A stretch of DNA of 64,000 nt from Octopus sinensis (taxonomy: Eukaryota): contig NC_043009.1 in the NCBI RefSeq assembly GCF_006345805.1, positions 58,094,001 to 58,158,000 of the forward strand. The letters run 5' to 3'. The notes beneath the pieces were generated by a model, which did no database searches, was not told where the DNA came from, and worked only from the letters and a program-made list of their open reading frames with translations. The position numbers and the translations under genes are program-made. Every line of letters begins with the position of its first letter. The first letter of the stretch is position 1. This document shows, in pieces, positions 3,586 through 42,700 of this stretch.

Positions 3586-4012
3586 ATAATATCAAAGCTA
3601 ATAGTAACAGCAAGCGACTAGAACAATAGTGACGAGAATGCCTTCCATATATATAATTTATACGTGACACACATTTCAAATTTAGTGGTTATTAAAATGC
3701 AATTTGACTAAAGGCAAACTCTTAATATTCACATCTTTCTTAAAGATAAGCGTGAAACAAAGATCCTGTGGATAGCTTACAGCAAAGTTTTTATCCTAGT
3801 TTGCAGATAATAGCGTACAATCACATATATTTAATAGTCTTCATGGAGTATATGTAAATCCCGTTCATTTAAAGACGAAATATTTGGCTTCAATACGTAA
3901 CTAAAATAATCTGCAAAAACTATTTTATGCAAAGATTACACATATGCAAATTCTCTAAATCAGGATGCGATGATTGACAAAAGGTATATACATACATACA
4001 TATATGTATATA

Positions 4013-4351
4013 TCCTTTTTTCTCTCCTTGTTTTTTTCTGTGTCCATTTCTGTAGAAGAGCGTAGGCTCGATACGTAAAAGACTTTTTCTATTCCTGAGC
4101 GTTATACTAATACATCTGTTTGTTTTGTACAGCACCTGTCTTCGTCTTTTGTTTTTTCGTAAACTTTCCCTATATATAATATATATATATATAATCCTTT
4201 TTTCTCTCCTTGTTTTTTCTGTGTCCCTTTCTGTAGAAGAGCGTAGGCTCGATACGTAAAAGATTTTTTCTATTCCTGAGCGTTATACTAATACATCTCT
4301 TTGTTTTGTACAGCACCTGTCTTCGTCTTTTGTTTTTTCGTAAACGTTCCC
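4013..4351 (+). repeat. Tandem pair of ~157-bp units, each with a variant hammerhead-like motif
   Basis: Near-identical units at 4013-4170 and 4195-4351 separated by (TA)n. Each contains TTT-CTGTAGA-A-GAGC gtag GCTC-GATAC-GTA-AAAG. Confidence 0.75.
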
Positions 4352-4667: not shown

Positions 4668-5276
4668 TATATATATCTATCTATCTATATATATATATAT
4701 ATATATGTATATGTATGTATGTATATATGTATGTGTATGGGTGTGTGTATATCTATATATGTATGTATACACATACATGTATACATACATATATATATAT
4801 AAATAAATACATAAAATTTGTGAATGTGTATATATATATAAATTATATATATATATATATATATATACGTACTAACAGACACATTTTTATACAAACAAAA
4901 CGCAATGAGAATATGAATACGACATTTGTCTGAACTTAGATTTCTATATATTGTTTCTTTTTTCCATGATATAAAAATTACTGCTTCCATTCCAGGCAGA
5001 CAAATCATGTGGATGTAAAAAGTAGCTTTGTTGTTCTAGTTTCAATTACACAAAAATGCAATTCAATCATTAATACCATTTGAAATTCAAGCTGAAACGA
5101 GAAACAGCCCAGCAAGTTCGAAGTTAGACAACTCAAGATAATGACAAACCGTCCGGTTTCCCGTTTGATATAAGTTGTTTTCAATTCAAGCTCTGATTCA
5201 TTGAGATACAATAATAATTCTTCTTTGATAAGTATATACATACATACGTGCATATATATATATATATATTATATAT

Positions 5277-29806: not shown

Positions 29807-30108
29807 ATATGCCGAAAAATTGGACATATTCTCCATTAACCATATAATTTTTTCACAATATGCACGCTACTCGAAAAAAGGTCGACAGAAATTTCTAAAA
29901 TATTCCATTATTACCATATCGGACCGATTTCAGGGTTAGCTCATAAGAGTCCTCCCTTCGTCAGTGATAAATTTTGAACTAACCTTGAAATCGGTCCGAT
30001 ATGGTAATAATGGAATAGTTTAGAAATTCTGTCGACCTTTTTTCGAGTAGCGTGCATATTGTGAAAAAATTATTGGTTAATGGAGAATATGTCCAATTTT
30101 CGGCATAT
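29807..30108. repeat. Inverted repeat (~135-bp arms, ~30-bp spacer); PLE terminal-repeat foldback
   Basis: 29807-29943 is the near-perfect reverse complement of 29975-30108. Confidence 0.9.
29917..29969 (-). ncRNA. Type I hammerhead motif at the apex of the inverted repeat
   Basis: TATCA-CTGACGA-AGGG...CCCT-GAAA-TCG-GTC-CGATA. There is one mismatch at the base of stem I and C15.2>T. Confidence 0.65.
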
Positions 30109-41184: not shown

Positions 41185-41813
41185 TCACATACACACACAC
41201 AAGCACGTGCGCACGCTCACGCACACACACACACACACACACACTTACACACACAAGCGCGCACACGCAGGCACACACATACTCACACATAGAAGCACGT
41301 GCGCACGCACACACGCACACACACACACTTACACACACACACGCACACGCAAATATAAACACACACCCAAGCATGCGTGCAGTCACACACACACAACAAC
41401 AGCAAAAGCGCACACGCACGCGTGCGCATGCGCGCACACGCATGGACACATACACATGCGAACATACACGCACACATACACACGCACATAAGCGCGCGCA
41501 CACACACATATATACATATACATATACATACACACACAAACACACGCATGCACACACACGTATACATATAGATGCACAATCACACACAGACACACCCATA
41601 TACATACATATACATATAAACATCCGTACACACACATACACAAACACACACACGTATATATACATAGGTACCTTATATCATTTCATATTTACAGAAAGAG
41701 AGTGGGAGTGAGGGACAAAGAAAGTGATCAGGAGGACATTAATATTGAAGAAGAGAAAGCGGAAGAGAGCGAGGAGAAGTGGGAGAGAAACAAAGAAAGT
41801 GTCAAAGAAGAAT

Positions 41814-41903
41814 GGCATATGGCGTAGTGGCTAAGGGTGCGGGATACTAACCCCAAGATTCCGATTTCGATTCCACGGACTGACCCGAATAATGATAATA
41901 ATG

Positions 41904-41964
<61 letters not shown>

Positions 41965-42157
41965 CAACAACAACATCGAAAAATACCTTAGGAATGAGAA
42001 CCCAGTTTCGAAATTTCCCCAAGACACCTGATGAAAGCTGGAGGGTATATCAGCAGAAACGTTGTGTTAACAACAAAGAAGATGAGGACAAATATCCGTC
42101 AAATGTAAATAAGGTAAACAATGTATATAATTCCTCATCTCTTAAGTATAGAACTGT
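41814..42157 (+). mobile_element. tRNA-derived SINE-like element carrying a hammerhead motif
   Basis: A box TGGCGTAGTGG (41820) and B-box-like GATTTCGATTCC (41863), an (AAT)n(AAC)n linker and a hammerhead. Flanked by direct repeat AAGAATG (41808 and 42158). Confidence 0.7.
42023..42068 (+). ncRNA. Minimal type I hammerhead motif
   Basis: GACAC-CTGATGA-aa-GCTG gagggtatat CAGC-a-GAAAC-GTT-GTGTT. Stem III is loopless and palindromic (AACGTT). The first pair of stem II is mismatched. Confidence 0.7.
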
Positions 42158-42320
42158 AAGAATGCATTACATCACTTGTTCCCTGTGTGTGTGTGTGTGT
42201 GTGTTTTACAAATTGAAATAATTCCTTCTGACTTTCCTTTATTTCTCCCACTTCCACCATTTGTCGCACCGTCTCCCTGGCTCCCACCCACTTTCTCTCT
42301 CAATATATAAATATGTTAAT

Positions 42321-42700
42321 GCGGCAAGCTGGCAGAAATGTTAGTACGCCGGGCGAAATGCTTAGCGGTATTTCTTCTGCCGCTACGAACTTTGCCTTTC
42401 ATCCTTTTGGGGTCGATTAAATAAGTACTAGTTACGCACTGGGGTCAATATAATCGACTTAATCCGTTTGTCTGTCCTTGTTTGTCCTCTCTGTGTTTAG
42501 TCCCTTGTGGGTAGTAAAGAAATAGAAATAGGTATTTCGTCTGTCTTTATGTTCTGAGTTCAGATATCGCCGAGATTGACTTTAACTTTCATTCTTTCGG
42601 GGTCGATAAATTGAGTACCAGTTGTGTACTTGAGTCGATCTAATCGACTGGCCCTCTTCCTCCAAAATTTTGGTCCTTGTGCCTAGAGTAGAAAAGAATA
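42321..42700 (+). mobile_element. SINE family A (dimeric)
   Basis: Family A head, core and tail. Confidence 0.85.

Follow-up and report, generated by a model that had tools for sequence, protein, structure and literature searches.

The window analysed here, a stretch of 64,000 nt of Octopus sinensis (NC_043009.1, positions 58,094,001 to 58,158,000), carries at 41808..42164 of its forward strand a lone copy of a Penelope/Poseidon-type terminal repeat (pLTR) with a tRNA-derived head. By direct reading, the unit is flanked by the target-site duplication AAGAATG, once at 41808..41814, where the final G is possibly the first base of the element, and again at 42158..42164, where the first A may be its last base. 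A junction-anchored 7-nt duplication was found next to only 0.1% of 20,000 random right flanks used as a control, and since such a match is so rare, the window duplication is probably real; it is shorter than the duplications at the inverted pairs described below (9–16 nt matches, including some element letters). The unit begins with a tRNA-Arg(ACG)-like head (41814..41887), the 5′ start of the pLTR of a Penelope-type element (PLE). Its A box (41820..41830, TGGCGTAGTGG at 41820) is intact, and in its B box (41865..41873) an alignment to the copy L048 reveals G53 changed to T, with 10/11 box positions kept. A linker of variable length follows at 41888..41975, with (AAT)n at 41888-41961 and AAC repeats onward to 41975, and it is present in the pLTRs linked to the PLE open reading frame (ORF) too. 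The 184 nt beyond the linker, called the tail here, contain the first 55 codons of this reverse transcriptase (RT)–GIY-YIG ORF (41994..42158), with the ATG at 41994 as its inferred start and the frame still open in the window copy.

The same codons contain a minimal type I hammerhead motif at 42023..42068, forward strand. Its stem I is formed by 42023-27/42064-68 (GACAC at 42023, GTGTT at 42064), its core CTGATGA (42028-34) is followed by an extra A, and its stem II pairs 42036-40 with 42051-55 (GCTG/CAGC at 42037/42051), the first pair being A.A. GAAA at 42056-59 (GAAACGTT at 42056) and the ACGT palindrome at 42059-62 complete the motif, which places the predicted cut at 42063/42064. Further downstream, a 9-bp stem (42080..42140; AGATGAGGA at 42080-88 pairing with TCCTCATCT at 42132-40) is present in the minimum free energy (MFE) fold, with fold z values of −2.0 for the copy L014 and −0.03 for L271. 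The ‘short’ 3′ end of the family falls inside the loop of this stem, at ~42110-42130 (tail positions 135-162, mostly 140-150), and we infer it to be an internal start of reverse transcription. The optional 33-42 nt PLE ‘tail’, which terminates at the ‘long’ 3′ end, is present in the window copy at 42125..42158. All of the motifs named in the original prediction, and the AAGAATG flanks, were found at their places by direct reading. The first downstream run of four T is at 42204, and immediately 3′ of the unit, at 42314-42690, another abundant SINE-like repeat is present in two adjoining copies. The window copy itself is probably decayed and inert.

The family-type hammerhead agrees well with the minimal hammerheads of PLEs, as had been predicted: it has the CUGANGA/GAAA core, the extra base between 9 and 10.1, the G10.1-C11.1 pair and the palindromic ACGU in place of stem III. 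The predicted damage to the window copy is borne out as well, as its first stem II pair is A.A, compared with G-C in 66/89 other copies, and its ribozyme is probably dead judging from this lost pair. Among the 89 copies not chosen on the motif, 18 have kept the core, G10.1-C11.1 and ACGU together. Covariation of stems I and II within the family, proposed earlier as a check on the ribozyme, is absent (4 double changes against 54 broken cells), and the stem changes look like neutral decay, which is what neutral copies from a single master should show. A similar motif, with a differing stem II that still pairs over 4-7 bp, occurs in 11/33 metagenome PLE loci scanned. In folding calculations the hammerhead form lies 1.2-1.4 kcal/mol above the MFE, and the MFE of the dimer is not a hammerhead. 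Because the copies start far upstream of the cut and run on for 50-95 nt after it, the putative cleavage defines neither copy end. Cleavage is probably dispensable for copying. Metazoan PLE minimal hammerheads have been described as having no activity on their own and little as a dimer (PMC4209133), and hammerhead mutants of an Anolis PLE do not block insertion in vitro (PMC11167929).

A short deletion at tail positions 86-90 (window 42060-42064), the predicted cut region, was seen in ~22/104 copies not chosen on the motif; slippage on a GT micro-repeat would explain it as well as cleavage and re-joining. Other CTGANGA..GAAA motifs are found in the window at 29964 (−), 44222 (−), 11655 (+) and 56881 (+). 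Since the motif at 29964 (−) matches a better-paired copy in the locus L092, other hammerhead-bearing repeat families are likely.

The tRNA origin of the head, also predicted earlier, is well borne out across the family. All four family heads aligned best to tRNA-Arg(ACG) among ten tRNA anticodon classes taken from the same genome assembly (G000); the head's alignment score is 64, compared with 29 ± 4 for shuffles. The A- and B-box positions are kept 11/11 in three family heads and 10/11 in the fourth, compared with 38-39/62 (~62%) of the other positions (p ~0.01). An Rfam scan matched neither a hammerhead nor a tRNA, and ARAGORN at normal thresholds reported no tRNA; only at a threshold of 70 does ARAGORN call heads, and it then calls noise as well. 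We attribute the missing calls to the degenerate or minimal nature of the motifs, which are nevertheless present family-wide. The octopus SINEs OR1 and OR2 are tRNA-Arg-derived, and the short form of the family may already be catalogued under a SINE name such as OR1, OR2 or OK. Elsewhere in the assembly (C2:3.12-3.16 Mb; L142, L143), tRNA-Arg(ACG) genes and their variants form a tandem array that repeats about every 206 bp. At ORF-linked junctions (for example, L306 and L185), the 16 nt located 5′ of the head resemble an inverted head remnant, as if the head had joined the element via a PLE-type inverted junction. More speculatively, a tRNA-Arg or tRNA-SINE RNA may have been joined to a truncated pLTR cDNA, which later became the repeat of a coding copy.

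The family is large. In the 2.72-Gb assembly, five insertion sites in sixty evenly spaced 10-kb stretches (600 kb) correspond to ~23,000 sites per genome, with a 95% range of about 7,000-53,000. A 42-nt family hammerhead has 934 exact matches (0 for the reversed control pattern), which, scaled by the 5/89 copies that match exactly, amounts to ~17,000 hammerhead-bearing copies. Family copies diverge 5-6% from their column majorities. Head and tail were predicted to travel together and do so: in 23/29 loci chosen by the head alone, the tail lies ≤300 nt from it, and in several of the other six the linker holds another element. LINE-like insertions, which we take to be RTE-like and restriction-endonuclease-like, often break up or replace the (AAT)n linker (L007, L011, L020, L040, L044, L055, L120, L124). 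Such frequent insertions could favour a tRNA SINE with an AAT tail that was mobilised by a LINE and received a PLE fragment by chance insertion, but the fixed order of head, linker and tail in those 23/29 loci speaks against it.

How the copies inserted was examined at 82 single loci; these come from the 100 exact matches (of 934) listed first, and eight multi-copy stretches were excluded. An inverted piece is present upstream in 52/82 and an inverted tail in 45/82 of these loci, and inverted pairs make up 4/5 of the unselected sites in the evenly spaced DNA. Same-strand tail pieces stand upstream in 3/82 loci only, so the family does not form the tandem units of a non-LTR retrozyme. Eight of the 45 inverted pairs were dropped for an undefined end. 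In 34 of the 37 scored, one arm has a long end (tail 173-184) and the other a short end (135-162; Fisher p = 2e-7). Duplications scoring at least 9 flank 21/37 pairs and 2/7 solo full-length copies, compared with 1.2% of 1,332 mismatched flank pairs. Contigs of public runs likewise show loose ends at the two 3′ positions. An origin of the inverted pairs by cDNA fold-back was rejected, because fold-back predicts equal 3′ ends and these are unequal in 34/37.

PLEs are described as having inverted truncated partners, an optional tail of 30-40 nt, target-site duplications of 8-10 bp and pLTRs that contain the first codons (PMC8557442, PMC3846280). The optional tail, the inverted truncated partner and the target-site duplication of such endonuclease-bearing (EN+) PLEs are all found in the window family. 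Its 3′ ends are two fixed, non-repetitive sites with no simple repeat, and thus not the LINE-type 3′ tail of a SINE2. The inverted pairs, whose arms cover the same sequence, the two fixed 3′ ends and the flanking duplications uphold the suggestion that Penelope enzymes rather than a LINE mobilise the copies, and speak against a LINE-driven SINE. A 4.65-kb tandem segmental repeat carrying a truncated PLE copy and its inverted partner was also encountered (C9560 and C4:104.35 Mb; L244-L247).

In 12/104 full-head rows (a few places counted twice), one upstream sequence is shared, and it translates as the end of a GIY-YIG-type endonuclease. When 30 loci were collected by this endonuclease peptide, the head was found directly downstream in 25/30 and the tail in 27/30. 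The distance from the ORF stop codon to the head is 29 nt in three of the four copies inspected, the fourth having a deletion, and the junction recurs in contigs of 4/4 public runs from four organisms. At the other end of the ORF, the tail is in frame with the N-terminus in L268, L271, L284 and L280, and the homolog P0005 has an N-terminus similar to the ORF start encoded by the tail. The order is head, tail, ORF in L294 (the same locus as L268), which starts at the head, and tail, ORF, pLTR in L313 and L296. The full element is head-(AAT)n-ORF of ~840 codons-29 nt-head-(AAT)n-tail, in which the hammerhead and tail occupy the first 55 codons and the RT, then the GIY-YIG domain, follow. Both characters of an EN+ PLE are present, namely a single ORF with a PLE-type RT and, at its C-terminus, a GIY-YIG domain, and a pLTR that overlaps the ORF start and is repeated after the ORF.

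A reading frame in L248 has 551 open codons spanning RT and endonuclease. A direct Pfam scan of this decayed frame returned no family; among 1,703 ORF homologs, most of the top rows carry PF00078 (RVT_1), PF28514 and PF26215, and some PF01541. No intact full ORF was present among 3 × 150 listed rows, in which 551 aa is the longest open frame, and the family looks extinct because of this. A search with the translated tail gave 150 short copies among the matches listed and no long frame, and no relative was found among viral contigs. By sequence reading, the endonuclease is at the C-terminus and a CxxC linker between it and the RT is absent, which agrees with Penelope/Poseidon rather than Neptune. 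Neptune-type ORFs of the same assembly have the CxxC linker and branch far away from the family in a quick tree of homologs. Neptune-type PLEs found by a Pfam GIY-YIG search had also been considered as partner of the short copies, and were rejected as the tail is absent in 30 + 20 of their loci. In one Neptune-type family (L091, L092, L094), several frames of 781 aa are intact and a hammerhead-like core with U3-A8 is present; this family is probably young or active.

These data do not sustain the proposal of an independent SINE-ribozyme chimera, since the unit belongs to an autonomous-type PLE as its pLTR, and the tail is the start of the ORF. A LINE-mobilised SINE with a chance PLE fragment is refuted by the insertion signature, the head after the ORF stop and the in-frame tail, and retains hardly any credibility. 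It is also improbable, if not to the same degree, that the short copies are a separate non-autonomous SINE with short masters of its own, mobilised in trans by the PLE, the ORF-linked heads being SINE landings behind the ORF. Short copies are indeed some five to ten times as numerous as ORF-bearing ones (38,055 versus 3,684-4,221 loose candidates, with the ORF at 0/5 random sites), and any intact solo pLTR could be a secondary source. Against this, the head stands directly after the ORF stop, at a fixed distance, in 25/30 ORF ends, and the tail frame is open and continuous with the ORF. The two sets of copies are also much alike. Between 45 ORF-linked and 105 head-start copies, 15/261 columns differ (p < 0.01) in the share of the majority letter only, the letter itself being the same in all 15, and such differences are expected from how the copy sets were chosen. 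Divergence is similar (6.3% for ORF-linked and 5.1% for head-start copies). The pLTR thus has the tRNA-derived head with A and B boxes of a SINE2, but without diagnostic majority differences it does not form the non-autonomous lineage, distinct from its partner, that a SINE2 would be.

The 5′ ends of the copies bear on what the head does. The hammerhead-chosen loci contain 86 head pieces, and 60 remained after setting aside 26 that end within the head (45 nt). Of these copies reaching the head start, 49/60 end in a 22-nt bin around it (15/19 solo copies, 3.5 expected; 34/41 paired copies, 6.1 expected), or 43/60 under a looser rule for upstream extension. Such a pile-up points to an RNA beginning at the tRNA-like +1. 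Sense-strand runs of four T, which would act as Pol III terminators, are missing from the 2,800 majority columns of the element (0, with 4.6 expected by codon shuffle; P = 0.005), whereas Neptune ORFs have 9-13 of them. This terminator argument is weakened because runs of four G are equally absent (15 G3, 0 G4) and because single natural ORF pieces show no significant depletion of T4. Pol III transcription from the head is likely and gives the best reading of these sequences; a Pol II promoter or a junction palindrome could give the same pile-up, and a palindrome, CCATAATTGCCC-AC-GGGCATATGG, does sit at the head start.

We weighed two accounts of the same PLE. The one we favour, and hold to be rather probable from the sequence features above, is that the window unit is a lone pLTR of a tRNA-Arg-headed Penelope/Poseidon element, whose head likely serves as a Pol III promoter making short RNAs that are copied by the element's own RT and endonuclease. 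A distinctly less probable account is that the tRNA-like head is a passenger captured once, and that the short copies are 5′-truncated pLTRs whose ends accumulate either where Pol II starts or at the palindrome. It would be natural in that the palindrome, where cDNAs would join, lies at the head start, runs of four G are missing just as runs of four T are, and PLE pLTRs lacking a tRNA head are themselves described with 5′ palindromes, TATA/Inr (Pol II-type) motifs and solo pLTRs (PMC3846280); the Penelope element of D. virilis also has an internal TATA-less promoter (PMC2377424). Yet the pile-up holds in solo copies without any inverted partner (15/19) and coincides with tRNA position +1, and the box positions have been kept while the tRNA stems decayed.

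If the head is indeed a Pol III promoter, the RNA would start at the tRNA-like head, and short RNAs from 3′ or solo pLTRs would read on into flanking DNA to a ragged 3′ end. In vitro, each of the two strands is cleaved and extended by the PLE protein of Anolis, and cDNA synthesis begins at two internal positions that delimit the tail (PMC11167929). By analogy with this element, the PLE protein would nick both target strands and start cDNA inside the RNA at two sites, and because cDNA starts inside the RNA, even a ragged-ended Pol III RNA could be used as template. A single cDNA would then give a solo copy such as that in the window, and two cDNAs joined head to head would give an inverted pair inside one target duplication.

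PLEs, their hammerheads, tails and inversions are already established. The EN+ PLEs described so far (PAc of Anolis, PMC11167929; Pen2a of Adineta, PMC3846280; PMC8557442) share with the window family the single ORF of ~840 codons with RT and C-terminal GIY-YIG, the pLTR overlapping the ORF start with a hammerhead there, the optional 30-40 nt tail, the inverted 5′-truncated partner, the roughly 10-bp target-site duplication and the 5′ palindrome of the pLTR. As described in those papers, their promoters are Pol II-like, whereas the pLTR here begins with a tRNA-Arg-derived A/B-box head and (AAT)n, and most copies are head-to-tail units of ~350 nt. Metazoan PLE minimal hammerheads (PMC4209133) are likewise similar, with a 5-bp stem I, the extra base between 9 and 10.1, G10.1-C11.1, the palindromic ACGU replacing helix III and mostly dispersed single motifs; stem II is 5 bp here and 7-8 bp in the schistosome examples given there. 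The schistosome Sm-alpha/Sj-alpha repeats (PMC6765202) also combine a Pol III-type promoter (a promoter-like head in our case) with a hammerhead in a short dispersed repeat. They are reported as tandem and cleavage-processed, with the promoter ending up 3′, whereas in the window family the head is 5′, the copies are single or inverted and end 50-95 nt past the cut, and an ORF is physically linked.

A tRNA head with A and B boxes, short length and high copy number are shared with tRNA-derived SINEs, including the octopus OR1, OR2 and OK (cited in PMC4824008, PMC4758252). Unlike these, the window unit has neither a LINE-derived tail nor a simple-repeat 3′ end, its body is a PLE ORF start and its head belongs to a coding element. 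Non-LTR retrozymes (bioRxiv 10.64898/2026.07.22.740005) are hammerhead-bearing PLE derivatives too, but they are non-coding tandem repeats, and no tRNA is mentioned in that preprint. Helenus, Ajax and Cassandra are tRNA- or 5S-bearing non-autonomous LTR elements (PMC10886601); Helenus and Ajax resemble the window family in having a small-RNA-derived sequence inside a retroelement terminal repeat, but in the latter it is a protein-coding PLE whose repeat contains the tRNA head. The octopus repeat papers, in the portions consulted, list Penelope and SINE classes without linking them (PMC13282606, PMC8967140, PMC4758252, PMC4824008, PMC8969392). In a literature survey covering mostly titles and abstracts, with Repbase, Dfam and the 1994 octopus SINE paper outside its scope, no tRNA-headed PLE or PLE-mobilised tRNA SINE was found. 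What is new is a pLTR that begins with a tRNA-derived A/B-box head, with most head-reaching copies stopping there.

By definition, SINEs are Pol III passengers of LINEs. In the window family a tRNA-derived head forms part of a PLE repeat, and the short copies carry the complete insertion signature of a PLE. Should this head be a promoter, PLE enzymes would be running a SINE-like life cycle, possibly with a Pol III-made mRNA for a retrotransposon protein. Part of the ‘SINE’ annotation in such genomes is PLE pLTR. The family also supplies thousands of natural PLE integration products whose two 3′ starts are mapped and whose 5′ end is sharp, and against these the model of internal initiation on two strands, derived from the sole PLE studied in vitro, can be tested directly at the genomic level.

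A bolder version is that the whole element (~2.9 kb, T4-free) is the Pol III transcript of a retrotransposon that captured a tRNA promoter and became its own SINE factory, possibly a recurring event with L316 as a second case; we regard this as unlikely. Because a PLE initiates reverse transcription inside its template and can do without a fixed 3′ end, every intact terminal repeat would then be a SINE master. In L316, a distant PLE (901-aa frame, 40% identical) that is not a sister of the window family in a quick tree, an A-box/B-box pair lies ~70 nt after the stop, followed by a short AAT tract and then a minimal hammerhead (L316:2016-2260 and 4807-5064). This pair is the only regex match in 118 kb of 38 loci, the chance rate being 0.00085 per kb, and no tRNA parent was identified for this head. 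Its T4 depletion has P = 0.025 as one of 24 tests, and its two ‘pLTRs’ give no 5′ boundary because they are a 100% identical assembly repeat. From the arrangement of these motifs, tRNA-headed PLEs may have arisen more than once.
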